The notes beneath the pieces are model-generated. The model worked only from the letters and a program-made list of their open reading frames with translations. It did not search any database and was not told where the DNA came from. Position numbers and translations under genes: made by a program. 64,000 nucleotides of DNA from Candidatus Omnitrophota bacterium (GTDB lineage: Bacteria > Omnitrophota > Gorgyraeia > 1-14-0-20-64-10), in NCBI GenBank assembly GCA_016177405.1, contig JACOVG010000003.1, forward strand, positions 32,050 through 96,049, given 5' to 3'. This document shows, piece by piece, positions 1,015 through 63,625 of this stretch (position 1 is the first letter of the stretch; each line of letters starts with the position of its first letter).

Positions 1015-1044
1015 CGTTTTTAACACCATGGAGGTGCTGACAAA

Positions 1045-1299: not shown

Positions 1300-1313
1300 C
1301 TTTTCTGACCGCC

Positions 1314-11255: not shown

Positions 11256-11668
11256 TGCCGGTGGACGTGAGGCAATCACCCCGGCAGAGCCGGGTGAAGG
11301 TTCCGGAGATCCGGAGGGTGGCCGGGAGAATCTTGAAGGAGGCGGGCTGCGACTCCCAATATTTGTCGGTTTTGCTGACCGACGATGCCCGAATGGCGAA
11401 GATTCACCAAAGGTGGCTGGGAACCCTGGAGCCGACCGACGTGCTAAGCTTTTCCCAGCGGGGCCCTGCTTCTCCGGCTAAGATCTTGGGAGACGTCGCC
11501 ATCTCGGTTCAAACCGCCTTCCGGCTTCGAGGGCCCCGAGTTCGGGAGGAGGTCATCCGGTATCTGGTTCACGGGATTCTGCACCTGCTGGGTTACCGCC
11601 ACGACAAGCCCAAGGATAGGCGCCGGATGGAGCGCTTCGCCCGCCGCTTGGAAGCCTGCGCGGCATGA
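11255..11668 (+). CDS. ybeY: Endoribonuclease YbeY (rRNA maturation)
   Basis: Conserved H3xH5xH metal site HGILHLLGYRHD; size 137 aa; position after the phoH/HD gene. Confidence 0.9.
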   Translation: MPVDVRQSPRQSRVKVPEIRRVAGRILKEAGCDSQYLSVLLTDDARMAKIHQRWLGTLEPTDVLSFSQRGPASPAKILGDVAISVQTAFRLRGPRVREEVIRYLVHGILHLLGYRHDKPKDRRRMERFARRLEACAA

Positions 11669-12057
11669 CCCCGCCCCCTTATCCCAGGGGACCTTGGCAG
11701 ATTTTTTGGGCCAGCTGCCGCTATGCCCTCAAGGGCTTGCGCTTCGCCTTTATTTCCCAGCGAAGTTTCCGGATTCATCTGGCTGCGGCCTTCGGCGTTC
11801 TGGCGGGGGCCTTCCTTCTGCGGCTCGACGCCAAGGAGACGGCGCTCATCCTGGCGATGGTCACGCTGGTTCTGATGGCCGAACTGATCAACACGGCCCT
11901 GGAGGTCGTTCTCAATTTGATGGAGGCGAGAGAGCATCCGGTGGTCCGGGCGGCCAAGGATGTGGCGGCCGCTTCCGTTCTGATGGCCGTGGCCGGCGCG
12001 GCGGCGGTGGGCGTGCTGATCCTGGGCCCCAAGCTGCTGGAAAGGCTCGGGAGATAG
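11665..12057 (+). CDS. dgkA: Diacylglycerol kinase / undecaprenol kinase family membrane protein
   Basis: 130 aa, three TM helices, ALKGLRFAF...ELINTALE motifs of the DgkA family; ATGA overlap with ybeY. Confidence 0.8.
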   Translation: MTPPPYPRGPWQIFWASCRYALKGLRFAFISQRSFRIHLAAAFGVLAGAFLLRLDAKETALILAMVTLVLMAELINTALEVVLNLMEAREHPVVRAAKDVAAASVLMAVAGAAAVGVLILGPKLLERLGR

Positions 12058-12058
12058 C

Positions 12059-12706
12059 ATGATCAAGCGGCTCACGCGCAACTTCATGACCGGCTTGTTC
12101 GTCATCCTTCCGGCGGTCCTGACCTTCGGGGTTTTGAAGCTTCTCCTCGGAGGAATCGCCTCCTGGTTTGTCAATCCGCTGGTGCGGCTCATTTCTCCCT
12201 GGATCGCCCCGGGCTGGCTGACGGTCCTGGCCCGGCTGGGGATCGCGCTGGGTTTGATCGCCCTGGTTTCGTTGATCGGTTTCGGGACCCGGATTCTGCT
12301 GGTCAGCCGCCTCTTCCTCATGGGGGAGAGGCTGGTCCGCCGGGTGCCGATGGTGGGCAAGGTTTATGGGATGATCCGGGAGATTGCCGACGCCTTCAAG
12401 GGGCAAGCCCAGGGGGCCTTCACCCGGGTGGTGCTTTTGGAGTGGCCTCGCAAGGGTCTTTACGCCGTCGGTTTTGTCACCTCGGAAGGCAGGGGAGAGG
12501 TTCAGGAAAAAACCCCGGAGCATGTGGTGAACGTCTTTGTTCCAACGACCCCGAACCCCACCTCCGGGTATCTCATCCTGGCCGACCGGGAGACCCTGAT
12601 TCCTCTTTCCATGTCGGTGGAGGAGGGCTTGAAGCTGGTCATCTCCGGCGGCGTCGTGGGCCCCGCGGTCAGCCCGCCCAGGGCTGGGGCCAGTGGTGCC
12701 GCATGA
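12059..12706 (+). CDS. DUF502 family membrane protein
   Basis: N-terminal TM helices; conserved GKVYGMIREI...VVLLEWPRKGLYAVGFVT...NVFVPTTPNPTSGYLIL core typical of DUF502. Confidence 0.7.
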   Translation: MIKRLTRNFMTGLFVILPAVLTFGVLKLLLGGIASWFVNPLVRLISPWIAPGWLTVLARLGIALGLIALVSLIGFGTRILLVSRLFLMGERLVRRVPMVGKVYGMIREIADAFKGQAQGAFTRVVLLEWPRKGLYAVGFVTSEGRGEVQEKTPEHVVNVFVPTTPNPTSGYLILADRETLIPLSMSVEEGLKLVISGGVVGPAVSPPRAGASGAA

Positions 12707-13362
12707 CAAAAACCCTGGGGATCATCCTCCGCTGTCAGGAGGTGCGCGAGACGAGCGTTCTGCTGACCGCTTACACGCAGGATCTGGGCAAGATCCGGGG
12801 GCTCATGAAAGGGGTGCGGGGAGGCCGGGCGGCCGTTCCTTGGTACCTGGAGCCCTTGAGCCTCCAGTCGATGGTCATCTACGAGAGGCGGCGTTCTCCG
12901 GTGAGCCTGATTGGAAGTCTGGATCTTCTGGACGCCTTTGAGCCGGTTCGGAGGGATCTCACCCGGATCGCCCACGCCTGCTCTTTCCTGGAACGGGTGG
13001 AGGCGATGACCGAGGTGTTGGATCCCCATCCGGAGATCTTTCATTTGCTTCGCGCGGTCTTGAGGGCGATGGGCGCGGGGGCGGATCCCCGTTCCATGGC
13101 CCGGTTCCTGGAGGTTCATCTTTTGAGGGTGAGCGGTCTTCTTCCGGAGGCCGAACGCCTGCCGCTTTCTCCCGGAGGGCTTCTGACGCTCAAGCAGATT
13201 ACCTCCACCGCCCTGGAGAAGATCGCCTCCCTGCGAATGTCGGGCGCCATCGCCGGGGAATTGGCGGCGGTCCTTCGGCCCTCGTTGGAGGCGGCCGCCC
13301 AGGGGCCGCTTAAAAGCCAGAGCTTCCTCAAGGATCTTAACCTGGAGGCCCTGGCGGCATGA
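12703..13362 (+). CDS. recO: DNA repair protein RecO
   Basis: [40 protein letters not shown] is a RecO N-terminal OB fold. The track ORF 12442 is an upstream in-frame extension through DUF502; ATG 12703 overlaps the DUF502 stop. Confidence 0.75.
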
Positions 13363-14216
13363 CCCCCCCACCCGCCCTCACCTTTCAGGAATTGATCCTG
13401 CGCCTGGAAAGATTCTGGGCCGACCAGGGCTGTCTGATCGGCCAACCCTACGACATGGAGATGGGGGCCGGGACCTTCCATCCGCTGACCTTCTTCAAGG
13501 CCCTGGGAACCTCACCCTGGAAGACCGCCTTTGTGCAGCCCTGCCGGCGTCCCACGGACGGCCGCTACGCGGCCAACCCCTTGAGGGCGTCGCGCTATTA
13601 CCAGTATCAGGTGATCCTCAAACCCTCTCCGGAGGACGTCCAATCCCTCTACCTCAAAAGCCTGAAGGGGCTGGGGGTCGACCTGGCCGCTCACGATCTG
13701 CGCTTTGTGCAGGACGACTGGGAATCTCCCACCCTGGGGGCTTGGGGTTTGGGCTGGGAGGTGTGGCTCGACGGCCTGGAGGTGACCCAGTTCACCTACT
13801 TTCAGCAGGTGGGCGGCGTCGACCTTCCGGTCGTCTCGGCGGAGATCACCTACGGCCTGGAGCGGATCGCCATGTTCCTGCAGGGCAAGCTCGATCTCTA
13901 CGCCATCGCCTGGAACGGTGATCTCACCTACGGCGATCTCCACCGGCAGGATGAAGTGGAGCTGTGCCGCTACAACTTTGAGGCCTCCGATCCGGTTGTG
14001 TTGAGGCGCGATTTTGAAGAGTCGTTCGGCCAGGCGAAGAAACTTTTGGAGCAGGAGCTCCTTTTGCCCGCGTACGAAAAGCTTCTGATGGCTTCGCACG
14101 CCTTCAACGGGCTGGACGCCCGAGGGGCGGTGAGCGTCAACGAGCGGCCCACCCTGATTGCCGGGATTCGGAATCTGGCCAAGCGCTGCGCGCAAGCGTA
14201 CTTAAAAAGAGAATGA
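13359..14216 (+). CDS. glyQ: Glycyl-tRNA synthetase alpha subunit
   Basis: [36 protein letters not shown] is highly conserved GlyQ. Confidence 0.95.
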
Positions 14217-14219
14217 GTT

Positions 14220-16419
14220 ATGAGTCGTAACTTTCTTCTTGAGGTGGGCTGCGAAGAGCTTCCCTCCGAGGACCTGCCCGGGGTGCTGGACTGGGAAAGG
14301 GAAGGGCCTCGGGCGGCTGGAGGACTGGCCTCTTCCGCCGTTTCCGTCCTGTCGGACAAGAATGCCGTCTGGAAGTCGGTCCAGAGCTTCGCGACCCCCC
14401 GGCGGTTGGTCCTTCTGATCCGCGGGCTGGAGGAGAAGGTCTGCAGGGAGGAGAAGGGTCCTCCTGTTTCCGTCGCCTACGACGCGCAGGGCCGTCCCAC
14501 CCGGGCGGCCGAGGCCTTCGCGAGGCGGCACGGCCTTCCGGTTTCCAGGCTGACCCGGAAACAAACCCCCAAGGCAGAGGTGGTGGTCGCGCGGTACAGC
14601 CTTGCCGTGACAGAAGTCCTGGCGCAGGCGGTACCCCAGATGATCGAGGGGATGGTTTTTCCCAAAACGATGCGATGGGACGACTCCGGCGCGCGGTTCG
14701 CCAGGCCGGTTCGCTGGCTGCTTTGCCTTTTCGGCAAGAAGGTCATTGCCTGCTCTTTTGGCCGGGTCAAGGCAGGGAACAAGACGTGTCTCACGCGCCG
14801 CGCCGAGGATAAGCCGGTGCCGGTGACCTCGGTGGATCGTTATTTCGGCCTTATGAAGAAGGAGCGGATTCAACTGGAGCAGGGAATCCGGATTACGCCT
14901 GGAAAGGAACCCTTCACGCACCTGTTTAAGGAGCAGGTTCCTCTGAAGAAAGAGAGGCTGCAGAAAGCCCTCGAGGCGAAGGCGAAAGCCCTTTCCGGGC
15001 GGCTTTACCCCGCGGCCTCCGCGGAGTTTGAGTGGCTGCTTTCGACGGCGACCTTCCTGGCCGAGGATCCGGTGGTTCGGGAGGGTTCGTTCGAGGCGAA
15101 ATACCTGGCCCTGCCGCCGGAGGTTCTGGCCGCCTCCATGGCCAAGCATCTGAAGTTGTTCAGCGTTTATGCCGCCGATGGGAAGAGACTGCTCCCGAAA
15201 TTTCTGGCTGTCCTGGAGGGCCGGCCCGGCAAGCCCGCCACGGTCACGGCCAACCTCGAACGGATCATCGAAGCCCGTTTCAGCGACGCCAGCTTTTTCT
15301 ATGAGGAGGACACCCGCCAGCCCCTGGAGGCCAAGGTGGAGCAGCTTCGGGGGGTCGTTTTCCACGAGAAGCTGGGAACCGTCTACGAGCGCATTCCCAG
15401 AATCGAGAAACTGCTTGCGGTCATCTTGGAGGGTTCCTCCCTCTCACGCGGCCTGGGTGTGCCGCTCCTGGCCCGGATGGCCCGTTTGTGCAAGGCCGAT
15501 CTGGTTACCCAGATGGTCCGGGAGTTTCCTTCGCTTCAGGGGGTGGTGGGCGGATACTACGCTAAGCAGTCCGGAGAATCCGAGTGGGTATCTCGCGCCA
15601 TCGGCGAACATTACCGTCCGAAAAGCTTCTCGGATCCCCTGCCGGGGACTCCGCTGGGATCCTGGTTGAGCCTGGCCGACCGGCTGGACGCGCTGACGGG
15701 CTATTTCGGCGTGGGATTAAAACCGACCGGTTCGGCCGATCCCTACGCCCTGCGCCGGGCCGCGCTGGGGGCCGTGAGAATCCTGACCGATGAACGGGAG
15801 GCCTTCTCGCTCACGGGGCTGTCGGTTGACAGCCTCATCCGGGCGGGGATAGAATCGTGGGGCTCGCGGTTGACCCTGCCTGCCCAGGTGGTCCAGGAGG
15901 AGCTTCAGGCCTTTCTTAAGGAACGCTGGCTTTGGCTCGCGGGCCAGGCTCACCCCGGGGCAGGCGGGCAGTGGCTTGACGCCGTTTGGTCGCCGAACCC
16001 CGGAGATCTCATCGGCGCCTGGCGCCGGTTGGAGATGCTCCTCGGATTCCTCAAGAATCCCAAATCCAGGGAGACGGTCCTTCGGGCGGCCAAGGTGGCG
16101 GAGCGCTCCGGCCGGATGGTGCGAGCCGCTTCCGGGGAGGAGGTCCGGGGGTCGGTGGATGCCTCCCTTTTTCAGGAGCCGGTGGAGAAGGAGCTTTGGC
16201 GGCAGTGGCAGGAGCTTTCGCCGGTGTTGTCCGGCCAGCTGGCGCGTTCGGAATATCTGGCGGCGCTGGCGAGCTACGGCCGGCTGCGGGAACCGCTCCA
16301 CGCTTACTTTGAGAAGGTCTTCGTGATGGGTTCCGACCAGGCCCAGAGAATCAATCGCTTGCTTTTTTTAAAGGAGATTCATACCGCCATGGCCGGTCAT
16401 TTCGCCGATCTTTCCGAGG

Positions 16420-50186: not shown

Positions 50187-50483
50187 GTGTTTGTGATGGG
50201 GAATCTCTTTTCGACGGCCGCCTACGTGGTGAACACCGGGCTTACCATCTACACGTGGATGGTCATCCTTCGGGTGCTGGTGAGCTGGGTCTCTCCGGAT
50301 CCCTTCAATCCGATCGTTGTTTTCCTGGGCCGGACAACCGAGCCCTTTTTGGCTCTTTTCAGAAGGGTCATTCCGCCCATCGGCATGATCGACCTGTCGC
50401 CGGTCGTGGCGCTGCTGGTCCTGCAGGCGGCCCAGCACTTCCTGGTGAGGACCCTGCTGGATCTTTCCTTGAGACTTCGGTAG
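50187..50483 (+). CDS. yggT: YggT-family membrane protein
   Basis: 98 aa, two TM helices; VLVSWVSPDPFNPIVVFL...PPIGMIDLSPVVALLVL matches the YggT/Ycf19 family. Confidence 0.7.
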   Translation: MFVMGNLFSTAAYVVNTGLTIYTWMVILRVLVSWVSPDPFNPIVVFLGRTTEPFLALFRRVIPPIGMIDLSPVVALLVLQAAQHFLVRTLLDLSLRLR

Positions 50484-50492
50484 GAGGGCGGC

Positions 50493-51311
50493 ATGAGCTT
50501 ATGGGAGCAGATTCAAGAGGCGGTGGGCGCGATTCGTTCCCGGGTGAATCTGGAGCCCTCGGTGGCGGTGATTTTGGGCACCGGCCTCGGAGGTTTCGGC
50601 GGCGAGATCGAAGGCTCGAAGGCGCTGGCCTATGCCGAGATCCCGCACTTTCCCCGTTCGACGGTGGCCGGGCACAAGGGCCAGCTGGTCTTCGGGCGGG
50701 TGCAGGGCAAACCCGCGGTCGTGATGGAGGGCCGCTTTCACGTCTACGAGGGCTATTCCGCGCAGGAGGTGACCTTCCCCGTGCGGGTGATGAAGGCCCT
50801 GGGGGCCGAAACCCTGGTCGTCTCCAACGCGGCCGGAGGGCTCAACGCCGATTTCTCCGCCGGCGATCTGATGGCGATCACCGACCACGTGAACCTTATG
50901 GGGGTCAATCCCCTGATCGGACCCAACGACGAGCGCCTGGGGGAGCGCTTCCCGGACATGTCCTCGCCTTACGACCCGCGGCTTATGGAAGCGGCCCTCG
51001 CGATCGCCCGGAGGGAAAAGATTCCCCTGCGCCAGGGGGTTTACGCGGCGGTGGCGGGGCCCAACCTGGAGACCAAAGCCGAGTACCGGTTCCTGCGGGG
51101 AATCGGCGCCGACGCGGTGGGGATGTCCACGGTGCCGGAGGTTCTGGCGGCGGTCCACGCCAAGATGCGGGTTTTCGCGGTCAGCTGTATCACCGACCTT
51201 TGCATCCCGGAAACCTTGAAGCCGGCCTCGCTGGAGGAGATCCTGAAGGTGGCGCGAAAGGCGGAGCCCCGCCTGACGGCCCTCATTTCCCGCCTCATCG
51301 AAAAGATCTGA
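50493..51311 (+). CDS. Purine nucleoside phosphorylase (PNP-I family, PunA-like)
   Basis: VAVILGTGLGG...HFPRSTVAGHKGQLVFG...VVMEGRFHVYEGY...MSTVPEV motifs. Confidence 0.8.
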   Translation: MSLWEQIQEAVGAIRSRVNLEPSVAVILGTGLGGFGGEIEGSKALAYAEIPHFPRSTVAGHKGQLVFGRVQGKPAVVMEGRFHVYEGYSAQEVTFPVRVMKALGAETLVVSNAAGGLNADFSAGDLMAITDHVNLMGVNPLIGPNDERLGERFPDMSSPYDPRLMEAALAIARREKIPLRQGVYAAVAGPNLETKAEYRFLRGIGADAVGMSTVPEVLAAVHAKMRVFAVSCITDLCIPETLKPASLEEILKVARKAEPRLTALISRLIEKI

Positions 51312-54142
51312 TGGTTCCACCCGCCGATTACAAGGCCACCCTCAATCTTCCCAAGAGCGCCTTTCCCATGAAGGGGAACCTCCCGGCCACCGAGCCCGCG
51401 ATCCTGGGGCGATGGGAGGCGCAAGGCCTTTACGAAAAGATCCTGGCCCGGCGCCAGGGGGCTCCCGCCTTCATCCTTCACGACGGCCCACCCTACGCCA
51501 ACGGGGACATCCACATGGGGCATGCCCTCAACAAGACCCTCAAGGACTTCATCGTGCGCTTTGAGAACCTGAAGGGACGGCGGGCCCCCTACCTGCCCGG
51601 GTGGGACTGCCACGGCCTGCCCATCGAGTACGCCCTCATGAGGGAGCTCGCGGTCACCAAGCACGAGGTGGACACCGTGGAGTTCCGGCGAAAGGCCAGG
51701 GAATACGCGAAGAAATTCGTCGGGATTCAGCGCGAGCAGTTTAAAAGGCTCGGGGCCATGGGCCAGTGGGAAGATCCGTACCTGACCCTGGCGCCGGGCT
51801 ACGTGCAGGCAGCCCTGACGGTCTTGAAGAGGCTGACCGAGGAGGGCTTTGTCTACCGCGACAGGCGCCCGGTCAACTGGTGCTGGTCCTGCGAGACCGC
51901 CTTGGCCGAGGCCGAGGTGGAGTACGAGAAGCATGCCTCGCCGTCGGTCTACGTGAAGTTCCCGCTGACCGCGGAGTCGGCCAGAAAGCAGGGCGGCATC
52001 GAGCCGGGCGCCGGCCGGGGCACGTACCTCGTGATCTGGACCACCACCCCCTGGACCCTGATGGGCAACACGGCGGTGGCGGTTCATCCGGATTTCGAGT
52101 ATGCCGTCTGCCAGGCCGGCCCCAACGAGGAATGGGTGGTGGCCGCGGATTTGCCGCCGCATTCCGCGCGGGCGCTGGGGTGGGAAAAGAAATCCTTAAA
52201 TATCAAACGGACCCTCCGCGGCAGGGAGCTGGAGGGATGGGCCTATGAGCATCCCTTGGGCATCAGGCAGGGGCGGGTGGTTCTGGCCGATTATGTCACG
52301 CGGGAGGATGGAACCGGGCTCGTTCACACCGCGCCCGGCTTCGGCGCGGAGGACTACCTGACAGGGAAGAAATACGGTTTGGAGGTGCTGGCTCCGGTCG
52401 ATTCCCAGGGCCGTTTTGCCGGCCTGCCGAAAGCGGCCGAACGGTTTAATGGCTGCCAGGTTCAAGAGACCAATCCGGCCGTCATCGAGGAGCTTCGGGA
52501 GCTCGGCGCTCTGGCGGCGCCCGCGGCCCAGGTGGAGCACGACTACCCGCACTGCTGGCGCTGCCATACGCCGATCATCTTCCGGGCCACCGATCAATGG
52601 TTTCTGCGCGTCGAGCACCAGGGCCTGCGCGAGAAGCTCGCGAGGGTCATCGCTTCCTCGGTCCAATGGATCCCGCCCGAGGGCCGGGAGAGGATTCTGG
52701 GAATGGTCAAAACCCGGCCCGATTGGTGCCTCTCCCGACAGCGGTTGTGGGGGATCCCGGTCCCCGCCCTGGAATGCGTTTCCTGCGGCGAGGGGCTCCT
52801 GCACCCGGAGGTGATCGAGCGCTTCGCCGCCGCCATCGGCAGCGACCCGGAGGGTTCGGACCGGTGGTTCACCGAACCCGTCAGCCGGTGGCTGCCCCAG
52901 GGGCTGGCCTGCTCCAAGTGTAAGAGGAGGGAATTCAAGGCCGGCCGGGACATCCTGGACGTCTGGTTCGATTCTGGCGTCAGCCACGAGGCGGTCCTGG
53001 CCCGGCGCGAGGGGCTTTCGCGGCCGGCCGACCTTTACCTGGAGGGGTCCGACCAGCACCGGGGATGGTTTCAGGTGTCGCTGATCACGGCGGTCGCCTT
53101 GAACGGCCAGGCCCCCTACCGGGGGGTCCTGACCCACGGTTTTGTGGTGGACGGCCAAGGGCGGAAGATGTCCAAATCCCTGGGCAACGTCATGGCCCCC
53201 CAGGAGGTGGTTTCCTCGCTGGGGGCCGATGTCCTGCGGCTGTGGGCGGCCTCTTCCGATTACCGGGAGGACATCCGGCTTTCTCCCGTGATCTTGAATC
53301 AGGCGGCGGAGGTCTACCGGAAGATCCGGAACACCCTGCGCTTCGCTCTTTCCAACCTGTCCGACTTCAACCCGTCGGATCTGGTCCCTTTTGAGAGAAT
53401 GGAGGGCTTGGACCGCTGGCTGATGATTCAGCTTCGGCGCGTGACCGAAGAGGCGACGCGGGACTACGAGACCTTCTCCTTTCACAAGGTGGTCAAGGCG
53501 ATCCATGAGTTCTGCACCGTCACCTTGTCGAACTTCTATCTGGACGTCGTGAAGGACTGTCTCTACACCGAGGCCTCGGCCGATTCCAAGCGCCGCTCGG
53601 TTCAATCGGCCCTCTGGCGCGCCAGCGAGACCCTCCTCCTGCTTTTGGCCCCCCTGATTCCCATGACGGCGGAGGAGGCTTGGGGGGCCCTGCCCGGCAA
53701 GGGCGAGTCGATTCACCTGCAGGACTGGCCCGATCCCAAGAACCTGCCGGAGGATCCGAATCTGGAGCGGCAGTGGCAGCGGCTGCTCGCCTTGAGGGAC
53801 CAGGCGATGAAGGCTCTGGAGGAGGCCCGCTCCCAGGGGCTGATCGGCGATTCGCTTCAGGCGCGCCTGACCTTGAAGGTGGAGGAAGAGGGGCTTTGGG
53901 ATTTCCTGAAGGGCAGGGAGGAGGACCTTAAGCTGGCGTGCCTGGTGTCGGATCTGCGCCTGGTGAAGGAGAAGGGCTTGGGGGCGCCGTGCCGGATGGA
54001 GATTGCCAAGGCGGAGGGGACCAAATGCCAGCGTTGCTGGAGGTATGAGGCCACGGTGGGCTCCTCAAAGGCGCACCCGGGCCTTTGCCGGCGCTGTCTG
54101 ACGGTCGTCGAGAAACTGCTTTGCGGTGGCAGTACTGGCTGA
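51311..54142 (+). CDS. ileS: Isoleucyl-tRNA synthetase (type 1, C-terminal zinc finger)
   Basis: HMGHALNKTLKD (HIGH), KMSKSLGN, C-terminal CQRCWRY...CRRC. ATG 51311 overlaps the PNP stop; the track ORF 50255 is a 352-codon in-frame extension. Confidence 0.95.
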   Translation: MVPPADYKATLNLPKSAFPMKGNLPATEPAILGRWEAQGLYEKILARRQGAPAFILHDGPPYANGDIHMGHALNKTLKDFIVRFENLKGRRAPYLPGWDCHGLPIEYALMRELAVTKHEVDTVEFRRKAREYAKKFVGIQREQFKRLGAMGQWEDPYLTLAPGYVQAALTVLKRLTEEGFVYRDRRPVNWCWSCETALAEAEVEYEKHASPSVYVKFPLTAESARKQGGIEPGAGRGTYLVIWTTTPWTLMGNTAVAVHPDFEYAVCQAGPNEEWVVAADLPPHSARALGWEKKSLNIKRTLRGRELEGWAYEHPLGIRQGRVVLADYVTREDGTGLVHTAPGFGAEDYLTGKKYGLEVLAPVDSQGRFAGLPKAAERFNGCQVQETNPAVIEELRELGALAAPAAQVEHDYPHCWRCHTPIIFRATDQWFLRVEHQGLREKLARVIASSVQWIPPEGRERILGMVKTRPDWCLSRQRLWGIPVPALECVSCGEGLLHPEVIERFAAAIGSDPEGSDRWFTEPVSRWLPQGLACSKCKRREFKAGRDILDVWFDSGVSHEAVLARREGLSRPADLYLEGSDQHRGWFQVSLITAVALNGQAPYRGVLTHGFVVDGQGRKMSKSLGNVMAPQEVVSSLGADVLRLWAASSDYREDIRLSPVILNQAAEVYRKIRNTLRFALSNLSDFNPSDLVPFERMEGLDRWLMIQLRRVTEEATRDYETFSFHKVVKAIHEFCTVTLSNFYLDVVKDCLYTEASADSKRRSVQSALWRASETLLLLLAPLIPMTAEEAWGALPGKGESIHLQDWPDPKNLPEDPNLERQWQRLLALRDQAMKALEEARSQGLIGDSLQARLTLKVEEEGLWDFLKGREEDLKLACLVSDLRLVKEKGLGAPCRMEIAKAEGTKCQRCWRYEATVGSSKAHPGLCRRCLTVVEKLLCGGSTG

Positions 54143-54164
54143 TATAATTTAACCTCTTACGAAG

Positions 54165-54569
54165 ATGACAAAACCCGATTTGGCCCGATACAAAAAGCTC
54201 CTCTTGAAGAAGAAGGAGGAGGTCCTTCAGGCGATGAAGCACATCGCGAAGGACACCCTAAGCCAGTCCCAGCGGGAGGCGTCCGGAGACCTTTCCGGCT
54301 ACACCTTCCACATGGCCGATACCGCCACCGACAGCTACGACCGGGAATTCTCCCTGGGGCTGGCCACGAACGCCCAGAAGATCCTCTACGAGATCGAAGA
54401 GGCGCTCAAGAGGGTCAAGGAGAAGGGGTTCGGCAGCTGCTTGACCTGCGGCAAGGCCATCAACCGCAAGCGCTTGACCGCCATTCCGTACGCCAGCCTT
54501 TGCATCGCTTGCCAGGCCGTTGAGGAGACCAAGCGCCGGGCCTCCGGACCTCCGGCCGAATCGGCCTAG
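54165..54569 (+). CDS. DksA/TraR-family C4 zinc-finger protein
   Basis: N-terminal coiled-coil; C-terminal CLTCGKAINRKRLTAIPYASLCIACQ four-Cys finger. Confidence 0.75.
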   Translation: MTKPDLARYKKLLLKKKEEVLQAMKHIAKDTLSQSQREASGDLSGYTFHMADTATDSYDREFSLGLATNAQKILYEIEEALKRVKEKGFGSCLTCGKAINRKRLTAIPYASLCIACQAVEETKRRASGPPAESA

Positions 54570-54578
54570 CGGCCTCCT

Positions 54579-55019
54579 TTGCCCTTTTACATCCTGGGCT
54601 TGGCCTTGGGGGTGGTCTTGGCGGATCAGATCACCAAGGCCTGGGCCCTGCAAGCCTTGTCGGAGCTTCCCACCCGGCCGATCGTGCCGGGGATCTTCCA
54701 CCTGACCCTCATCCAGAATCCCGGGGTGGCCTTCGGGTTGTTCAGCGGCCAGCCCCTCCCGGTGGCGCTGGGCACGACCGGGATTCTCTTTTGGCTCATC
54801 TGGTCATCCCTGAAGAACCGCCACACCGAGGGGGCGAGCAGCGCCCTGCCGCTGGGGCTCATCTTGGGGGGCGCCATGGGCAACCTGATGGACCGGATCC
54901 GGCTGGGCGGCGTGGTGGACTTCTTGGACTTCAGGATCTGGCCGGTCTTCAATGTGGCCGATAGCTGCATCACGATCGGCGCCGCCCTCATGGCCTTAAG
55001 CCTTATCAGGAAGAAATAG
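54579..55019 (+). CDS. lspA: Lipoprotein signal peptidase (signal peptidase II)
   Basis: TTG start; NPGVAFGL and FNVADSCITIGA catalytic motifs; ileS-lspA linkage. Confidence 0.9.
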   Translation: MPFYILGLALGVVLADQITKAWALQALSELPTRPIVPGIFHLTLIQNPGVAFGLFSGQPLPVALGTTGILFWLIWSSLKNRHTEGASSALPLGLILGGAMGNLMDRIRLGGVVDFLDFRIWPVFNVADSCITIGAALMALSLIRKK

Positions 55020-55023
55020 CCCG

Positions 55024-55754
55024 ATGCACCCCGTTCTCTTTCAATGGGGGCCGCTTACCCTCCACAGCTACGGCCTGATGCTGGCGATCGGATTTTTAAG
55101 CGCCCTTCAACTGGCCCTCCGGCGCGCCAGAGAGCTTTCGATCGACCCGGCGGTGGTTCAAAATCTGGCCTTCCTTGTCCTGGGCTTCGGGATCGCCGGG
55201 GCCCGCGCCGCCTACGTTCTTCTTTTCTGGGAGATGTTCCGGGGCAATCCCCTGGAGATCCTCCGGCTGGATCACGGAGGGTTGATTTTCTACGGCGGGC
55301 TGGCGCTCGGGGTCCCGGCGGGGCTTGTTTACCTGAAGGGAAAGGGGCTTTTGAGCTGGCGGATGGTGGACCTGGTGATTCCGCCGCTTACGCTGGCGCA
55401 CGCGATCGGCCGCGTCGGCTGTTTCTTAAACGGCTGTTGTTACGGCGAGCCCTTCCTGGGCCCCTGGGCGGTTGTTTTTCCACCGGAGGGGATCCCGCGC
55501 CACCCCACCCAGCTTTACGAGAGCGGCTTTCTGCTTATCCTGTTTTTGGGTCTCAAGCGGCTGGAAAGAAGCGGCCCCCGGCCGGGGGCGGTCGCCCTGA
55601 CCTACGGTTTCCTCTATGGGGCCTGGCGTTTCGGGGTGGAGTTCCTTCGCGGGGACAACGCCAGGGGGGCCTGGGGGCTGACGGCCTTCCAATGGGCAAG
55701 CGTTCCGTTGATCGTCCTCTGCGGATGGATGCTGGCAAGGCGAGTCATGAGAGG

Positions 55755-55758
<4 letters not shown>
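55024..55758 (+). CDS. lgt: Phosphatidylglycerol--prolipoprotein diacylglyceryl transferase
   Basis: GPLTLHSYGLMLAIGF N-terminus; Lgt signature HAIGRVGCFLNGCCYGEP. Confidence 0.9.
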
Positions 55759-56666
<908 letters not shown>

Positions 56667-56715
56667 AAAATATCATCTCCTTGCATTGATTTCGCGCCCC
56701 TTACAGGGTAACCTT

Positions 56716-59700
56716 ATGGTTGATATCCCGATGACAGATAACCCGATGGCACCCGGAAAGTTTTTTATTTTGCGCCGTTTCTTAGCCCTTTGGCTAATCC
56801 TGGGCCTCGCCCTGCCCAATTCCGCTTCGGCCCTTCGTCCGCAGAATGCCGGAATGGAAGAGGGCTCCGCCACCAACTCCCAATTGGAGCGCGTCCTCCG
56901 AGGCACATCGGTCCTTCCCGCTGTTTCCCCCGGCGCCGGGCTGGAGGAGGGGCGGGCTTCAAGGGCGACGAGTCTTCGCGCTTTTCTCAACCAACACTTC
57001 AAAACTGATGACAAGAGAGATTTGGTATACCGAATGCGCGCTCTCCTCGAACACTCGTCTGAAGCTACGGATTACCAATCATTCCTGAAAGATCTGGCAG
57101 GGATTGCCATAGTTTTGGGCCACGGGAGTAGTCTGGATCCCGCTTCGATCGAATTTTCCAATGACTTTGAGAGATGGCTGAACTCCCTAGATGAACAACG
57201 TCGGAACCCTGGTGAAGAAGATTCCTATGGTGTCTGGGAAAGAGATTCCCTCAGGTTCCTCCAGGCACTAGGGCCGACGTTAGAGATATTTGCAAAAGGC
57301 GAGGGAAGCCAAAGGGCCGATTTTGCAAGTGTCGCGTCTCAATTTAAGCTGTCCGAAGAGGAGCTTCAGGAGCTTGTCAACCGCGTCCAAGCGGCCATCA
57401 GATACGATGCCGCCAAGCCCGACGCTGGGCTGGAGGAGGAACTTCTTAAACTTGCCAAAGAGCTGGAGGGAAGGCTTCTGGAGCAGGTGGAGAAGGAGCC
57501 GAAGCTTGAGGGGTTGCGCGAGAACCTCAAGGAGTGGGGCATAAATTTAAAGGACACGACGGTTCTCCTCGGAATTCACCTGGGCGCGAACGTTCTAGGA
57601 TCTAGTTCTCCGCCCATGCTGAATCATCTCTTGAACGAATTTGGGCCGGTCCGCAAGGCCTTGGGGGATCGGAAGATTGTGCATCTGCCATTTAACGTGC
57701 CGGGAACTCCCAACCCGAGCGATCCGCTAAGCGATATCCAGAAAATCCTTCCTGCCATTTTGAAAAATCCCAGGTTCGCTCTGGCAACCTTCACCGAGCC
57801 CCACAAGGGGGTCCCGGTTCAATTGGACTGGGTTAATGAGCGGGAAGAAGAGACCGGGTCTAACCCCTCCGTGACCTTCGTCTTGCTTGAGCGAGACCCC
57901 AAGGGACAGGTTAAGACGGTTGGAATGAACGGCGACGGCCCCGCCTTTTTGATCGAGGTCGAGAGGGCGTGGGGCCCCCAGGGGGGCCAGCAAGGCGGGG
58001 TGGCTGGTAAGAATGTTGTTCTGGGTGCTGGCGGCTTGGGGATCTCGCTGGTTTCAACGATGCTCAATCTTCCCCCTGCGGATCGACCGGCCAGGATCGT
58101 TCTAACGGAGGTTCCGGGTAAGCTTGCCAAGGCCAAAGAGACCCTAGAAGAGCTTCTCTCGGCGCCTGAGCTGAAGCTTTCAGACGCACAAAAGGCGCAG
58201 GTCATCCTTCTCTCCGCCACAGACCCTAACGTCACGCTAGAAATCAAACAGGCGGACTGGCTGGTGGACGCCACGGGTCTTGGCACAGATCCTCTGAAGC
58301 CCGAGGAGACGCCTCTGCCAGATCCCTCGGTTTTCTCTCAGATGAAACCGGACGCCAATATTTTGCAGGCACCCTATCGGGACAAGGAGGGTAGGCCGGT
58401 ACTAACCCGATTGATCCGCGATGCCTATTCCCAAGGGATTCCCACCCATCGGCTTCACAACGGGTTGAGACTGGCCGCCCGCAGTGCTGCCCTAGAGGTT
58501 GCCTGGCTGGTCAAGCGGCTTACCGGCAAGGAGATTGACGTGGAGATGCTGTATCAAGAGACCTGCAGGTATATCCACGATGACCTTGGCATGAGAGAGG
58601 CAAAAGAACTCCTCCGGTCGCTTCCCTCCCACCAGGCCGGTTTGGAGGAGGGATGGCCCGGCCGCGTTGCCTACAAATTGCTCGGTCTGGTTGTGGAGGA
58701 TCCTCACGCTTGGGTCAAGGGGCTTCGCCGCCAGCATCTGGAGCGACAGCTTAAACACCGGGATCCAACTGTCAGACGTGACGCTGCCTCTGCCCTTGGC
58801 GAGATGAAGGATCTCCGAACTATCCCTGCCCTTATTAAAGCCCTGAAAAACCCCGATCCATTTGTCCGTCGCATCGCTGCCAATGTTCTTAAAAAGATGC
58901 ACCGGGATCCTCAAGTTGGCTCTGCCCTTCTTATTGAAGCCCTGAAAGATCCCGATCCAGATATCCGCAAGGGCATTGCCTTTGTCCTTGGCAGTATTAT
59001 AAGAGACCGCCAATCTATCCCCACTCTCATCAAAGTCCTGAAAGAAGACGGCGACTCAGGTGTACGAGAATCCGCTGCCTATGCCCTTCTAGAGATTACT
59101 GGGGTTCGCGTATTGCATTATGCGTACAACCCCTACAGCGCTGGGAGTAAAACCGTTGTTTCCCAAGCACCCCCTAAGTACCCAGAAGCCGTCACCCTCC
59201 TACAGTCCGCAGCAAGAGAGACTCAAGATCCTGCTGTTCGGTTTACCATTTCCTGGATCCTCGAACAGTTCCAACCCAATGGGCTTAAGCAGGGGGCAAA
59301 GCTTATTACAGATGTACTTTCCAATGCCCAGAAGGAAAGGTTCGAAAACCTGCCTGGGGTCTCTGTGCGGGACCATTCTTGGATGAAACGAAAAGTTAAC
59401 CAAATCGTCTTTCCCCCCTTTGGAGATTGGGCACCTCTTCAGGAACTCTTGAAAACGTCAGGCATCAATCCCTACGCGACCCGCCTTCAATTAACGAGCA
59501 GCGCCTGGCTGGAGGGCGACCGGGTCAAATATGGAACCATCCTTGTTCTGCTGGCCAGAGCCACCCCGGTTCTGTGGCATGCCTCCTATTTCCGTGCCGA
59601 TGTGAGGGCGCATGACATTCCCCCCATCGTTGGCCCTGTGCTTGCAGGGGCCACCGGGGGACCCCGCGTGTATCGCACCGACCGCCTCATCGGCCACCTG

Positions 59701-62700
59701 GGTCATTTCGAGGAGATGAAGGCCTTCTTCCTTTTGGACTGGGCCCAGTCCCAGCTTCAGCGTCGGCAGGCAGGTAAGGAGCCGTTAATCCCATTCGAAA
59801 AAGAAGCTGCCGACCTTTATCAAATTCTTCCAGGTGTTCTGCAGGGGGTCTTTCTAGGCAAACGCATTTCCCGCCAAGGGGTGGATCAATTTATTAAGAT
59901 TGGAGAGAGATACAAGATTCCGCCTCTTAACAATGAGGACCTCAAGGCCCTCAACCAACTCTTTGTCGGAAAGGATTCTCTCTCCCTAGAGGACATCCTC
60001 CAACCTGTCTGGCGGCTCAGTAAACCCAATGAGCATGACCGTTTTGAACCTGACGCCGAGGAAAATGCCCGGGCCTGGATGGCCCTTCTGGTCCTTGAGG
60101 CCATGAAAGTGAGATACCCCGACCTTCAGAAAAAAGCGGCCGATCAACTCGAGGAAATCCTCGGAAAACTCCTAATCCTCTACCTCCATTCCTCTACAAG
60201 CCCCTCGGCCCTTCCACAAGCTCCTGGTACCCCCGCCGGGCTGGAGGAGGGGAAGATTGACCCGGCGGTGAGGGGAGCGCTCCGCGACGCGTTTGCGGGT
60301 GAGGAGATGGACGTTTCGGCGCGAGCCAATATCCTTGGCGATCAATTTCTTTCGCTTGAACCAACCCAGAAGAAGGAGCTTCTCTCTTGGCTCATCCTGT
60401 TGGGGTACTCGAAGCCAGAGGCAAGTGAAGTATTTGCCGAGATGCTGATTAACCCGTCGTCACCTCAACTGCCTGAAGCCATCCTGGAGGTAATCCTGTC
60501 GGATATCTCCGACTCTATGCTCGTGGCGGCGGCTCAACCCTCCGGCAAGGCGTTTGAGACGACGCTGCCCTACCACGTGGGAGATCTTGTTTATGCCATC
60601 CATCCGGATGAAAAGAGAGAAGCGGCGGAGAAGGTCATGCTGCTTGAGATGACGAGGAAGAGTAAGAAGAAGGATTCCCGTTTCTATGTGCTAGGCAGCC
60701 ATATTCTGCTTAATCGGCTCTCACATTTACATACCGTTGAAACGTCACGGCGCCAATGGTTTGATCAAGCCATCTATGTTCTGCCCGGCCTTTTGTCGGA
60801 AGCGATCCTTCAATGGAGGGGCCAGCTTTACTTAATGGCAACTGAATCCTACCGTTCTTATCTTCACAGTGGAGTGCCCCTCTTGCCCCATATGCAGATC
60901 TTTTCTATCCTCTCTATGCTGGAGAGCACCTTGTTGCAACATCAAAGCTTCTTGGAGGCGGGTCGGCTTTCGCTCGATCTGTCGGTAGATCCAGAGACAC
61001 GTGCGCTCAGCGTAAGATTAATCGAGGAGAAAAGAGAGGCCCTTAAGACGGACTTCTCAAGAATGGATGGTTATTTTTCTACCCTTGCGGAAGAGGTCGA
61101 AACCTACCTGACTCAAAACCTAAAAAACCGAGGCAGCATTCATCTGAAACGGGAGCTGTTGGGCTTTTTGGTGAGGATGGATGAACGTTATATAGACCTG
61201 TTGAGGGCCGTAGGAAAGAGCCCCGAAGGGATTTCTCCCTTTCAGGAGAGGATCAGCCAGAGGCAGGCAGAAATCGAACAGATAGACCAAAAGGTGCTGC
61301 AGGTTCTAGGCCTCGCCGCTGGGCTGGAGGAGGTGGAGCCGAACGAGACGCTCCTTATCCGCTGGCTTAATATGCATGAAGCCTTGTTGAATGAGAAGTC
61401 CAACAATAAAGATAGCCTCTCACAGGCCAATGAACTTCAGGCCCAGTTGTTTGCTCGAACGACAAGTTTGGAGGCAGGGATGGGCTTGCTCCGCTACATC
61501 CACAATCACCTGCTTTTGGGCAATTTTTTGTTGATGAATAATTATCGTCAGCGCCAAGCGATAGGGGATCGTTTGGTGGACGTGGTGCTTCAGATAGCAG
61601 AAAACCATAAAAACGATATCCCCTTATTGGAACAGGCCGAAGTGGTCAGCAAGGCACTCCAAGTAACGTTATGGTCTGGACAGTCTATACATATACGCGC
61701 CATGACTACGAGAATGGTAATTCAAACTTTACTGAAAAACGCTAGGGAGACTGAACAGGAGCCGCCGCCCGACGCCGGGCTGGAGGAGTGGGGTGCGGAT
61801 GTGTGGGATCGTCTCTACGAAATTGCAGAGGTGCCTGCTGTGAAACAGCTGCTCAAATCCATCCTGTATCCAATCCCGTGGGAAGAGGGATATATTCAAA
61901 TAGAAGCTGCGGATTCGGATATCACCGAAAACTGGGGAAAGATTGTCGAGGCCTTATCGGATAGCAAGGATCTTCAAGAAACGGCCTCCGTTTTTCAGAC
62001 AAAAGTGTTCAAACCTTACCAGATTTACGGGACGCTGCTTTACGACAATGACAAAGAAGAGGGCGTCCTTTTCATCGGAGGCAGCGGTATCGGGAAAACT
62101 GGTCTAGCCGTTTCGGTACTTGACTTCCCCAAACGAGGAGGGAGACCACAAACCGACCGCTGGGATGTGATGGGCGATGACACCCTCATTGGATTCATGG
62201 ATGAGGGGAAGCTTTACGTGGGACACAATCCTTCCGCAGACGTTAATCACCTGAACTACGCCAATGGATACGTCCTTGGTCAATGGGACTTTTCAGAAGG
62301 ATTTGTTCCTGTTGGACGCGTTTTCATCATGACCGAAAGCAATGACAAAGGGGACAAGCAGAGTGTGGGAGATTTTGTTTTGGACTTGATGAGCACCAAA
62401 GAAGAGAAAGCGTTTTTACCTCCGGATATGTTACAGGCGCTCAACACGCTTCCTTCCACGCGCCTGCCTGTCCCAGACCAGGCGGACCTTCAATGGTATA
62501 AGGAGCATGCCAAACCGATTGTGGAGGCATCCGGGCTGGAGGAGGGGGACGCGAAAGAACTGCGGGCGTCATTGTTGGCGCTGTGGGAGGAGATAAGGGG
62601 GCCGGTGGAAGAGATCGACACAAACGCAGGGATGCTCTTAGGTTTCCTGGAAGCAGGCAAAGAGCCTCGCGAATTTGTAAAGCAGGCGGCGGGAAAGACG

Positions 62701-63564
62701 ATCACTTCGAAGCTGGAAACCATCCTGGCGGCCGCCAAGCCGCGCTCAAAGGAGAGCCATTCCTTCAACGCCGTCATGGCGCACAAGGTCAACAATTTGC
62801 TTACTGGAATAGTCGGCTATGCCGATCTTTACTCCATAGCGAAGGATATCGAGGGTCGTAAGAAGAGGATGGAGCAGGTCAGAGATGGCCTCCGGGATCT
62901 AGCTAATTTCTTTACCGACGTTGGCAAAATGCCCGATGCGGAGCTTGTTAAACTGGCACAGGATGCTTTGGTGCTTAGCAGGGGAGGGATTCTCCAGACG
63001 GCCCAATCGTCTCCCGTTGTGCCGGCGCAGCCTCCCGCGACGGGCTTGGAGGAGATGACAGCGGAGAAACGAGTGACGGGATGGTACGAGGGGCTGACCA
63101 AAGAAGGGACAGGACAGGTGGCCGACGAGAAGCTCATGCTTCACTTGATGCCTGGTGAGGAATCGTTCGTGGTGGAGGTAAAAGACCAGCCGCCGGTTAC
63201 GGTGATCTATCGCGAGAAGGGGATGGAACTGCAGGCAGAGTTAGTGGATACGGTTGGAGGGGAGAACATTCGGGATTTGCCAGAAGGACCAGCCGATGTG
63301 GAGCTCCTTCTTCGCAAGGCCGATCCCCATGCCATTGTCCTTCTGAAGCCTGATTCAAGAATAACTGTTCCATCGGATGTGAAGATTCCGGTTCTCATTC
63401 TCCCGGCGGCGAAAGCGGCAGAGTTGACTGCCCATGAATTGAGCGCCATCGCGGCCGAAATTCATCGAAACGCCGGGTTCCACGGATACCTCTACCGGGT
63501 GAGCGACATCACCCGCGCTGGCCTCGAGGAAAACAAGTCCGCCGTTGTCCTGCACATGGCCTAA
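56716..63564 (+). CDS. Giant (about 2280 aa) secreted or membrane-anchored multidomain protein of unknown function
   Basis: Uninterrupted 6.8-kb frame in an AT-richer stretch. N-terminus MVDIPMTDNPMAPGKFFILRRFLALWLILGLALPNSASA/LRP is a Sec signal with an ASA cleavage site. Four PBS-lyase-type HEAT repeats (about 58735..59100), GxGxxG loop VLGAGGLG (58021..58050), HprK-like P-loop LFIGGSGIGKTG...MGDD (about 62070..62200), HisKA-like H-box MAHKVNNLLTGIVGYADL (62778..62830). About ten copies of an (A/P/T)-G-L-E-E motif. Start codon uncertain (ATG 56716, 56731 or 56746; TTG 56686). Confidence 0.8.
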   Translation: MVDIPMTDNPMAPGKFFILRRFLALWLILGLALPNSASALRPQNAGMEEGSATNSQLERVLRGTSVLPAVSPGAGLEEGRASRATSLRAFLNQHFKTDDKRDLVYRMRALLEHSSEATDYQSFLKDLAGIAIVLGHGSSLDPASIEFSNDFERWLNSLDEQRRNPGEEDSYGVWERDSLRFLQALGPTLEIFAKGEGSQRADFASVASQFKLSEEELQELVNRVQAAIRYDAAKPDAGLEEELLKLAKELEGRLLEQVEKEPKLEGLRENLKEWGINLKDTTVLLGIHLGANVLGSSSPPMLNHLLNEFGPVRKALGDRKIVHLPFNVPGTPNPSDPLSDIQKILPAILKNPRFALATFTEPHKGVPVQLDWVNEREEETGSNPSVTFVLLERDPKGQVKTVGMNGDGPAFLIEVERAWGPQGGQQGGVAGKNVVLGAGGLGISLVSTMLNLPPADRPARIVLTEVPGKLAKAKETLEELLSAPELKLSDAQKAQVILLSATDPNVTLEIKQADWLVDATGLGTDPLKPEETPLPDPSVFSQMKPDANILQAPYRDKEGRPVLTRLIRDAYSQGIPTHRLHNGLRLAARSAALEVAWLVKRLTGKEIDVEMLYQETCRYIHDDLGMREAKELLRSLPSHQAGLEEGWPGRVAYKLLGLVVEDPHAWVKGLRRQHLERQLKHRDPTVRRDAASALGEMKDLRTIPALIKALKNPDPFVRRIAANVLKKMHRDPQVGSALLIEALKDPDPDIRKGIAFVLGSIIRDRQSIPTLIKVLKEDGDSGVRESAAYALLEITGVRVLHYAYNPYSAGSKTVVSQAPPKYPEAVTLLQSAARETQDPAVRFTISWILEQFQPNGLKQGAKLITDVLSNAQKERFENLPGVSVRDHSWMKRKVNQIVFPPFGDWAPLQELLKTSGINPYATRLQLTSSAWLEGDRVKYGTILVLLARATPVLWHASYFRADVRAHDIPPIVGPVLAGATGGPRVYRTDRLIGHLGHFEEMKAFFLLDWAQSQLQRRQAGKEPLIPFEKEAADLYQILPGVLQGVFLGKRISRQGVDQFIKIGERYKIPPLNNEDLKALNQLFVGKDSLSLEDILQPVWRLSKPNEHDRFEPDAEENARAWMALLVLEAMKVRYPDLQKKAADQLEEILGKLLILYLHSSTSPSALPQAPGTPAGLEEGKIDPAVRGALRDAFAGEEMDVSARANILGDQFLSLEPTQKKELLSWLILLGYSKPEASEVFAEMLINPSSPQLPEAILEVILSDISDSMLVAAAQPSGKAFETTLPYHVGDLVYAIHPDEKREAAEKVMLLEMTRKSKKKDSRFYVLGSHILLNRLSHLHTVETSRRQWFDQAIYVLPGLLSEAILQWRGQLYLMATESYRSYLHSGVPLLPHMQIFSILSMLESTLLQHQSFLEAGRLSLDLSVDPETRALSVRLIEEKREALKTDFSRMDGYFSTLAEEVETYLTQNLKNRGSIHLKRELLGFLVRMDERYIDLLRAVGKSPEGISPFQERISQRQAEIEQIDQKVLQVLGLAAGLEEVEPNETLLIRWLNMHEALLNEKSNNKDSLSQANELQAQLFARTTSLEAGMGLLRYIHNHLLLGNFLLMNNYRQRQAIGDRLVDVVLQIAENHKNDIPLLEQAEVVSKALQVTLWSGQSIHIRAMTTRMVIQTLLKNARETEQEPPPDAGLEEWGADVWDRLYEIAEVPAVKQLLKSILYPIPWEEGYIQIEAADSDITENWGKIVEALSDSKDLQETASVFQTKVFKPYQIYGTLLYDNDKEEGVLFIGGSGIGKTGLAVSVLDFPKRGGRPQTDRWDVMGDDTLIGFMDEGKLYVGHNPSADVNHLNYANGYVLGQWDFSEGFVPVGRVFIMTESNDKGDKQSVGDFVLDLMSTKEEKAFLPPDMLQALNTLPSTRLPVPDQADLQWYKEHAKPIVEASGLEEGDAKELRASLLALWEEIRGPVEEIDTNAGMLLGFLEAGKEPREFVKQAAGKTITSKLETILAAAKPRSKESHSFNAVMAHKVNNLLTGIVGYADLYSIAKDIEGRKKRMEQVRDGLRDLANFFTDVGKMPDAELVKLAQDALVLSRGGILQTAQSSPVVPAQPPATGLEEMTAEKRVTGWYEGLTKEGTGQVADEKLMLHLMPGEESFVVEVKDQPPVTVIYREKGMELQAELVDTVGGENIRDLPEGPADVELLLRKADPHAIVLLKPDSRITVPSDVKIPVLILPAAKAAELTAHELSAIAAEIHRNAGFHGYLYRVSDITRAGLEENKSAVVLHMA

Positions 63565-63590
63565 AAGGCCAACCCTTCGCACGGTGATTA

Positions 63591-63625
63591 AGGGGTGCCA
63601 GGTTAAAACCTGGCACCCCTTTCTG
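63591..63625 (+). terminator. Rho-independent terminator after the giant gene
   Basis: AGGGGTGCCAGG-ttaaaa-CCTGGCACCCCT followed by TTCTGCTT. Confidence 0.65.

Follow-up and report, generated by a model that had tools for sequence, protein, structure and literature searches.

Long proteins of the Omnitrophota have been described in two preprints as chains of numerous unrelated Pfam domains that carry HEAT repeats as well as signal peptides or membrane helices, and that include cytoplasm-type enzymes predicted to be extracellular. Their authors posed cleavage as a question and noted that they had no information on cleavage points. The literature on these proteins reads the HEAT repeats as assembly surfaces. 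Here, we analyzed a 64,000-nucleotide stretch from a Candidatus Omnitrophota bacterium (contig JACOVG010000003.1, positions 32,050 to 96,049, hereafter the window), which carries the gene of a modular protein split into units by a short recurring motif, [A/S/T]-G-L-E-E, that we call the junction or GLEE motif. An earlier note on this DNA, made from the letters alone, had found signaling modules on a protein with a signal peptide odd, but this is instead a known pattern of the Omnitrophota long proteins. The features quoted in that note are all present where it placed them, and its interpretation holds in part. The junction motif, absent from that note, is the most interesting element of the locus and organizes the whole protein. 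Linkers, junction motifs, a conserved leader, and HprK go unmentioned in both preprints, and a text search of the literature for the junction motif returned nothing relevant.

The enclosing open reading frame (ORF), along which residues are numbered, has 2,292 codons on the + strand (56686..63564), and the product read from the ATG at 56746 has 2,272 residues, which agrees with the earlier estimate of about 250 kDa. In frame, the protein carries the motif ten times as [A/S/T]-G-(L/M)-E-E against 0.17 expected, and all six frames of the window hold just one further copy of the GLEE motif (Table 1). These copies divide the chain into about nine modules of about 150 to 530 residues, and two of them sit just behind the leader; across the leader-bearing proteins, this pair of junctions encloses only 13–29 residues. 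Pro and Ala are often abundant in the stretches preceding the copies, above background in five of the ten cases. In AlphaFold2 (AF2) models, the segment of module 7 running from GLEE to GLEE forms a single compact unit whose confidence drops at the two motifs and nowhere else, and the junction between modules 8 and 9 falls within a predicted disordered stretch.

The motif is shared with six other proteins, five of which also carry the leader (AxA↓LRP, the arrow marking the predicted cleavage point, then GLEE). Altogether, the seven proteins have 33 GLEE sites where fewer than 0.5 would be expected in total, with Gly and the Glu-Glu pair present at 33/33 and Leu at 31/33, and the junction consensus over the relatives is [P/S/G]-[P/x]-[A/D/T]-[A/T/S]-G-L-E-E. 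The relatives encode GLEE with freely varying codons, so selection is at the protein level. We also considered GLEE as a DNA or RNA element, either Shine-Dalgarno-like (GGAGGAG) or with a reverse complement encoding SSSP as in the Omnitrophica protein P0002 (see below), and discarded this in view of the free codon variation among the relatives and within P0002. In the present gene, six of the ten junctions share the identical 12 nucleotides GGGCTGGAGGAG, often after GCC or GCT (P about 1e-7 under the gene's own codon usage), and make up the DNA repeat family D1 (window 56929..62552); microhomology for cassette exchange is one possibility for this uniformity. At 59497..59525, a degenerate copy of the junction DNA encodes SSAWLEGD inside the 533-residue module 4, about 130 residues past the HEAT repeats, and may be a decayed junction or a chance occurrence.

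The relatives were gathered by two routes, five via the P-loop module (module 7) and two via a leader profile. A HMMER search with the 256-residue P-loop segment against 1.84 billion representative proteins returned only five usable relatives, with 28–34% identity, and the P-loop cassette had no match when GTDB representative genomes were scanned. The five-sequence alignment of this module is too divergent for pattern scanning, and a search with the whole protein matched only the protein itself and one HEAT-repeat protein. One further candidate, P0006, is a repeat protein matched over five short stretches (E = 1.2e-5), and we discounted it as spurious.

In four other leader-bearing proteins, the HprK-like cassette recurs from GLEE to GLEE among otherwise unrelated modules. 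BLAST alignments to P0004, P0005, and P0008 begin and end within a few residues of GLEE; the exceptions are the start in P0004, which lies 27 residues upstream, and P0003, where the alignment extends about 40 residues past the second junction. Besides the P-loop module, the sole shared regions are in the leader, with weaker leader matches to P0004 and P0008. The remaining modules include, in P0005, sigma-70 regions 2 and 4, HATPase_c, and a weak methyltransferase-type match that falls below threshold; in P0004, a phosphodiester glycosidase (NAGPA) and a domain resembling inositol monophosphatase, the latter just under the Pfam cut-off; and in P0008, FHA domains. These comparisons show that the modules act as cassettes that have been shuffled. 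P0003, like the present protein, has a junction after its last module, and the tail behind it is only 10–12 residues long. A C-terminal sorting-type module common to the proteins was suspected by eye and dropped for want of BLAST support.

Several features of the relatives stand on their own. In P0005, the sigma-70 regions lie directly behind its Sec-type leader, and residues 452–510, about 30 residues after a GLEE junction, form an internal segment resembling a twin-arginine (Tat) signal (SRRRFLKVAAATAKAVGAA), which is below the cut-off of the Pfam Tat-signal family UCR_Fe-S_N (E = 0.0037). A 29-kb metagenome contig with 66% GC (L003) encodes two different leader-plus-GLEE proteins (413..1948 and 9827..14311), with efflux and ABC transporter genes between them; therefore, several copies per genome can occur. 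P0010 (L004 10001..10375) and P0009 (L005 6105..6410), the pair obtained with the leader profile, are short, and each lies no more than about 55–80 bases from the end of its contig, as though assemblies broke in or beside these genes.

A different motif punctuates P0002 (Omnitrophica GCA_028717645.1, L001 10001..21193), a 3,730-residue protein with HEAT repeats and HATPase_c that is related to the present protein only through the HEAT repeats. It contains 15 copies of SSP[L/V/M], with varied codons, against 0.9 expected. Because P0002 is punctuated likewise, junction motifs may be lineage specific, SSP[L/V] being the example here. In P0002, we also noticed paired SSP motifs 12 residues apart ahead of two internal hydrophobic, signal-like segments.

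Since the motif is invariant before unrelated folds and also follows both the leader and the last module, we infer that the junction serves for recognition, with proteolytic processing as its most likely purpose. In the mechanism that we propose, the protein would be a Sec-exported, beads-on-a-string precursor whose leader is cleaved at the predicted ASA↓LRP site, followed by about nine modules that seemingly fold independently, each behind a Pro/Ala-rich linker ending in [A/S/T]-G-L-E-E. A common factor would recognize the junction, and the likeliest such factor is a protease that splits the exported precursor into its modules.

The leader accounts for the only strongly hydrophobic stretch of the whole protein on the Kyte-Doolittle scale, KFFILRRFLALWLILGLALPNSASA↓LRP. 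We looked for the form of a Sec signal cleaved by signal peptidase I, i.e., a basic n-region, a hydrophobic core of 7–15 residues, and small residues at −3 and −1, and found K25, R30, and R31 ahead of FLALWLILGLAL, with A-S-A↓L behind it. The AxA↓LR(P) pattern is kept in P0003, P0004, P0005, P0008, P0009, P0010, and L003b (the second gene of L003), where it belongs to the called protein sequence in six proteins and to one ORF read from L003; identity over the hydrophobic core and the AxA↓LRP site is 31–51%. Because the same leader recurs in the relatives, it is, as far as such conservation can tell, translated and under selection, and the single Arg carried by the relatives argues for Sec rather than Tat. 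The Sec signal attributed earlier to this giant protein is thus backed by both the form and the conservation of the predicted leader. The protein is identical to NCBI MBI1952617.1, annotated [quoted passage not shown] and taken from a metagenome-assembled genome. The annotated start there is Met57 (56854), within AGMEEG, which leaves out the hydrophobic leader; other ATGs are available at 56716 and 56731. Since the omitted leader is conserved in the relatives, the NCBI start codon is probably misannotated, which would have removed a conserved export signal from the public model.

Module 7, which is 252–256 residues long, contains the P-loop string EGVLFIGGSGIGKTG starting at residue 1792 (62059), and this string and WDVMGDD (62161) are present in one frame as had been reported. 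AF2 modeling from the five-sequence alignment gave a predicted local distance difference test score (pLDDT) of 77 and a predicted template modeling score (pTM) of 0.78. When this model was compared by Foldseek with solved structures, the top 19 matches were all HPr kinase/phosphorylase (HprK/P), with E values of 1e-6 to 1e-4 and target TM-scores of 0.33–0.63. PEP carboxykinase, a known structural relative of HprK, came next, and the top 50 included no classical P-loop NTPase. True HprK sequences were recovered from the PDB search output and aligned to the module 7 family by hhalign, which gave 87% probability and E = 3.8e-6 over 47 columns that cover the Walker A loop, the next helix, the strand ending in Asp-Asp, and the following hairpin. 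Walker A and the Asp-Asp strand are intact in four of the five family members despite the overall identity of 28–34%. Scanned member by member, HprK was the family most often matched (4/5), with best E values of 0.0011 in Pfam and 0.0029 in NCBIfam, all sub-threshold, while PDB sequence searches with the P-loop profile or a homolog segment gave generic P-loop matches only. Judged by these alignments and models, module 7 is a divergent domain of predicted HprK/P fold that keeps the core catalytic motifs and lies outside the curated family. By analogy, because of this fold and of the retained Walker A and Asp-Asp, it would most likely bind a nucleotide or pyrophosphate and phosphorylate a hydroxyl on a protein or peptide.

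The H-box-like string of module 8 starts at residue 2026 (62761), in frame and 234 residues past the P-loop, close to the 220 or so given in the earlier note, which had likened it to the H-box of a HisKA domain. This likeness could not be established. Where HisKA (PF00512) has a cut-off of 26.9, the whole protein scored 14.6 bits and module 8 by itself 20.7 bits (E = 4.3e-4). In HisKA, the motif is H-E/D-x-x-N/T, with an acidic residue behind the phospho-acceptor His; the string here reads AHKVNN, with the His and the Asn at +4 present and Lys at +1. Neither the PDB search (no histidine kinase) nor BLASTP against the verified dimerization and histidine phosphotransfer (DHp) domain of HK853 gave a match. 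A single-sequence AF2 model has two 27-residue helices, the first bearing the string, at low confidence (pLDDT 47 overall, 40–80 in the helices), and Foldseek with it found generic helical bundles only (E > 0.03). That the H-box is an orphan was correct, as HATPase_c had no match anywhere in the protein at E <= 10. The resemblance to HisKA may nevertheless be real, and module 8 is best taken as helical, with a helix that may derive from a DHp domain. Because there is neither an acidic residue after the His nor an ATPase partner, we lean weakly toward a dimerization or phosphotransfer-type helix, or a relic, rather than an autokinase.

Among the features flagged earlier, only the HEAT repeats were significant in the Pfam scan. 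HEAT_2 (PF13646) scored 93.7 bits (E = 8.4e-27), HEAT (PF02985) 52.6 bits over four stretches (E = 2.3e-14), and HEAT_PBS (PF03130) 32.1 bits (E = 1e-7), which bears out the four PBS-lyase repeats that had been proposed. The glycine-rich loop VLGAGGLG was found as described at 58018, whereas the suggested link to ThiF was not recovered: residues 252–655 matched neither ThiF (PF00899) nor any Rossmann family in Pfam at E <= 10.

Table 1. Coordinates in the window of the modular-protein gene, its junctions, and its predicted modules
Feature	Position	Strand	Basis
Modular-protein gene, likely ATG	56746..63564	+	Uninterrupted ORF
Predicted Sec-type leader: basic n-region, 12-residue hydrophobic core, ASA↓LRP	56746..56832	+	Kyte-Doolittle, conservation
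Junction 1, AGMEEG	56851..56862	+	Motif scan
Junction 2, AGLEEG	56938..56949	+	Motif scan
Junction 3, PDAGLEE	57427..57438	+	Motif scan
GxGxxG-like VLGAGGLG, in the 400-residue module 3	58018..58041	+	String found
Junction 4, AGLEEG	58639..58650	+	Motif scan
HEAT repeats, about four (residues 683–810)	58732..59115	+	Pfam
Junction 5, PAGLEEG	60238..60249	+	Motif scan
Junction 6, AGLEEV	61321..61332	+	Motif scan
Junction 7 (first 12 nt of module 7)	61777..61788	+	Motif scan
Module 7, GLEE to GLEE: helical N-terminal subdomain and P-loop domain of predicted HprK/P (PEPCK-type) fold	61777..62544	+	AF2, Foldseek, hhalign
Walker A loop GGSGIGKT	62077..62100	+	Read from sequence; aligned to GDSGIGKS of HprK
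WDVMGDD strand	62161..62181	+	Aligned with RLVADD of HprK/P
Junction 8, SGLEEG	62533..62544	+	Motif scan
Module 8, all-helical, possible HisKA-like H-box	62545..63042	+	HisKA sub-threshold; AF2 helices only, low confidence
H-box-like string SFNAVMAHKVNN / SFNAVMAHKVNNLLTGIVGYADL	62761..62829 (His codon 62782..62784)	+	Sequence
Junction 9, TGLEEM	63043..63054	+	Motif scan
Module 9, C-terminal, mixed beta/alpha	63055..63519	+	No Pfam match; low-confidence AF2 model
Junction 10, AGLEEN (ten residues ahead of the stop codon)	63520..63531	+	Motif scan
Terminator-like hairpin, 14-bp stem, then UUUCUGCUU	63590..63621	+	dG −29.4 kcal/mol, z = −5.3

Our best overall explanation, to which we give about even chances, is that of an exported cassette protein with a divergent HprK-fold module 7 and with junctions that serve as recognition or processing sites. 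A number of points weigh against it, starting with the small census of five relatives by module and two by leader. Beside the GLEE genes in the window and at the relatives' loci, we found no protease or other shared partner gene: both GLEE genes of L003 have efflux and ABC transporter genes as neighbors. A retropepsin-like aspartic protease (L004 8779..9222), two genes upstream of P0010, was rejected as a linked protease, since it has no counterpart in the window or at the other loci and may be a coincidence. GLEE also opens the first helix in both AF2 models, and part of its conservation could, on these models, be structural, as a helix N-cap. The last two points are what an uncut surface or periplasmic scaffold would predict, with GLEE as a structural hinge that gives each module a Gly cap and an acidic first helical turn, and the HEAT repeats, seen in the literature as assembly surfaces, would suit such a scaffold too. 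We consider it somewhat unlikely, as a helix cap does not need a Gly and a Glu-Glu that never change and a Leu that hardly does before unrelated folds. Moreover, a hinge would be useless at the last junction, with only the short tail behind it here and in P0003, and the two junctions after the leader enclose next to no chain. Going further than the processing reading, GLEE and its lineage equivalents such as SSP[L/V] could be the cleavage sites of a bacterial polyprotein system with freely reshuffled effectors, including an HprK-fold kinase, but this we regard as unlikely.

For module 7, the points to be set against an HprK-like kinase begin with the profile searches. The earlier note had recognized an HprK-like P-loop here, a reading upheld by the Foldseek and hhalign results, but the Pfam search that the note itself had proposed gave Hpr_kinase_C (PF07475) only 11.3 bits over 22 residues against a cut-off of 33.3, the best relative reaching 16.3, and NCBIfam TIGR00679 gave 10.4 bits against a threshold of 240. 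The signature loop ExRGxGI(I/L), which is invariant as EIRGLGII in three solved HprK sequences, has no match to ExRGxG in module 7: the hhalign alignment ends before it, and the corresponding region of the module (its residues 157–169) is variable and of low confidence. In one relative, P0007/P0008, Walker A and the Asp-Asp pair are both gone, suggesting from sequence comparison that the module can survive without catalysis. Finally, to our knowledge, ATP is lacking outside the cytoplasm, and an exported ATP-dependent kinase would have no obvious supply. Because of this, an exported module 7 would have to use another donor (e.g., pyrophosphate), act inside another cell, or be noncatalytic. The Pfam score, the losses in P0007/P0008, and the lack of ATP also fit the view that the kinase-like features are relics, module 7 being a binding pseudo-enzyme and the H-box a chance likeness of an amphipathic helix, as do the HisKA score below its cut-off, the missing PDB and HK853 matches, the Lys at the acidic position after the His, and the missing HATPase_c. 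This view seems improbable to us given that Walker A and the Asp-Asp strand persist in all but one member at such low identity, that HisKA does reach its E value of 4.3e-4 on the isolated module 8, and that HprK/P can use pyrophosphate, which makes ATP not strictly necessary. A further rival is that the leader is untranslated and a cytoplasmic multidomain signaling protein begins at Met57, as in the NCBI model, with no strong Shine-Dalgarno sequence before any candidate ATG and with kinase-like and H-box modules that are typical of the cytoplasm. This is very improbable, however, since the frame is open from 56686 and the leader recurs in six called proteins and one L003 ORF with a degree of conservation unexpected in untranslated DNA. 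The exported, junction-punctuated cassette protein remains our preferred reading.

The window is otherwise an ordinary chromosome, with dnaE, hisS, aspS, glyQS, ppdK, dnaG, rpoD, a cell-division cluster, and proC. Directly upstream of the modular-protein gene are ileS, a dksA-like gene, lspA, lgt, and rluD, and a terminator-like hairpin is located 3′ of its stop codon. The gene (56686..63564) is compositionally atypical, its main modules having a GC content of 0.49–0.58 and a GC content at third codon positions (GC3) of 0.54–0.67, both below those of its neighbors (about 0.65 and 0.67–0.91, respectively, for ileS, lspA, and rluD, 50255..56666). The ileS ORF has approximately 380 open codons before the first IleRS domain match (window 50255..51400), with no Pfam match there, which represent either an N-terminal extension or a mere open frame preceding the true start.

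These findings bear on the Omnitrophota long proteins as a class. A short invariant border motif offers a concrete hypothesis for the open question of whether such proteins act as one chain or as cut pieces; if the polyprotein reading were true, it would supply the missing cleavage points for the long and giant proteins. GLEE also tells where such proteins can be divided before their structures are predicted piece by piece, and GLEE processing can be checked in existing metaproteomes. In addition, the alignments and models would extend the HprK/P fold to a very rare family (five relatives in 1.84 billion proteins) and to an extracytoplasmic modular context.

Compared with known systems, module 7 resembles HPr kinase/phosphorylase (PF07475, TIGR00679; PDB 1ko7, 1jb1, 1knx) in its predicted fold, Walker A loop, Asp-Asp strand, and next hairpin. 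It differs in being only 13–16% identical and under every curated cut-off, in having a helical N-terminal part rather than a MurE-like domain and an unrecognizable ExRGxG, and in belonging to an exported mosaic, whereas HprK works as a cytoplasmic hexamer that regulates carbon catabolite control. HprK-related kinases outside carbon control (HprK_rel_A, TIGR04352, and the HprK-like kinases of peptide biosynthesis clusters) are divergent and have substrates other than HPr. One member of the module 7 family faintly matches TIGR04352 (E = 0.062, not significant), but module 7 is part of a long protein and lacks the peptide-cluster context. Module 8 shares with HisKA/DHp domains (PF00512) the pattern AHxxNNxLTxIxGYAxL on a predicted long helix with another long helix behind it, and departs from them in its sub-cut-off score, in Lys for Glu/Asp after the His and Leu for the helix Pro, and in having no catalytic ATPase domain.

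As for the overall architecture, MARTX toxins and polyproteins with picornavirus 3C sites are multimodule chains that are cut at short recurring sites. The analogy with MARTX toxins and viral polyproteins is functional only, and lies in the unrelated modules, the unstructured linkers with a short recurring motif, and the reshuffling between relatives; the present protein differs in having no protease domain, no translocation repeats, and no sequence relationship to them. The closest likeness in kind is to the Omnitrophota long and giant proteins ("Archaeovorins," West-Roberts et al. 2023 preprint; 2026 multi-enzyme preprint), with which it has in common the phylum, a signal peptide, HEAT repeats, and many unrelated domains. 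With 2,272 residues, it is far from the classes of >= 10,000 residues in the 2026 catalog and of >30,000 residues in the 2023 study, and it has neither transmembrane helices beyond the leader nor C39 or S8 peptidase domains. We therefore read the modular protein as a small member of the Omnitrophota long-protein class, one in which the borders between modules are marked by a conserved junction.

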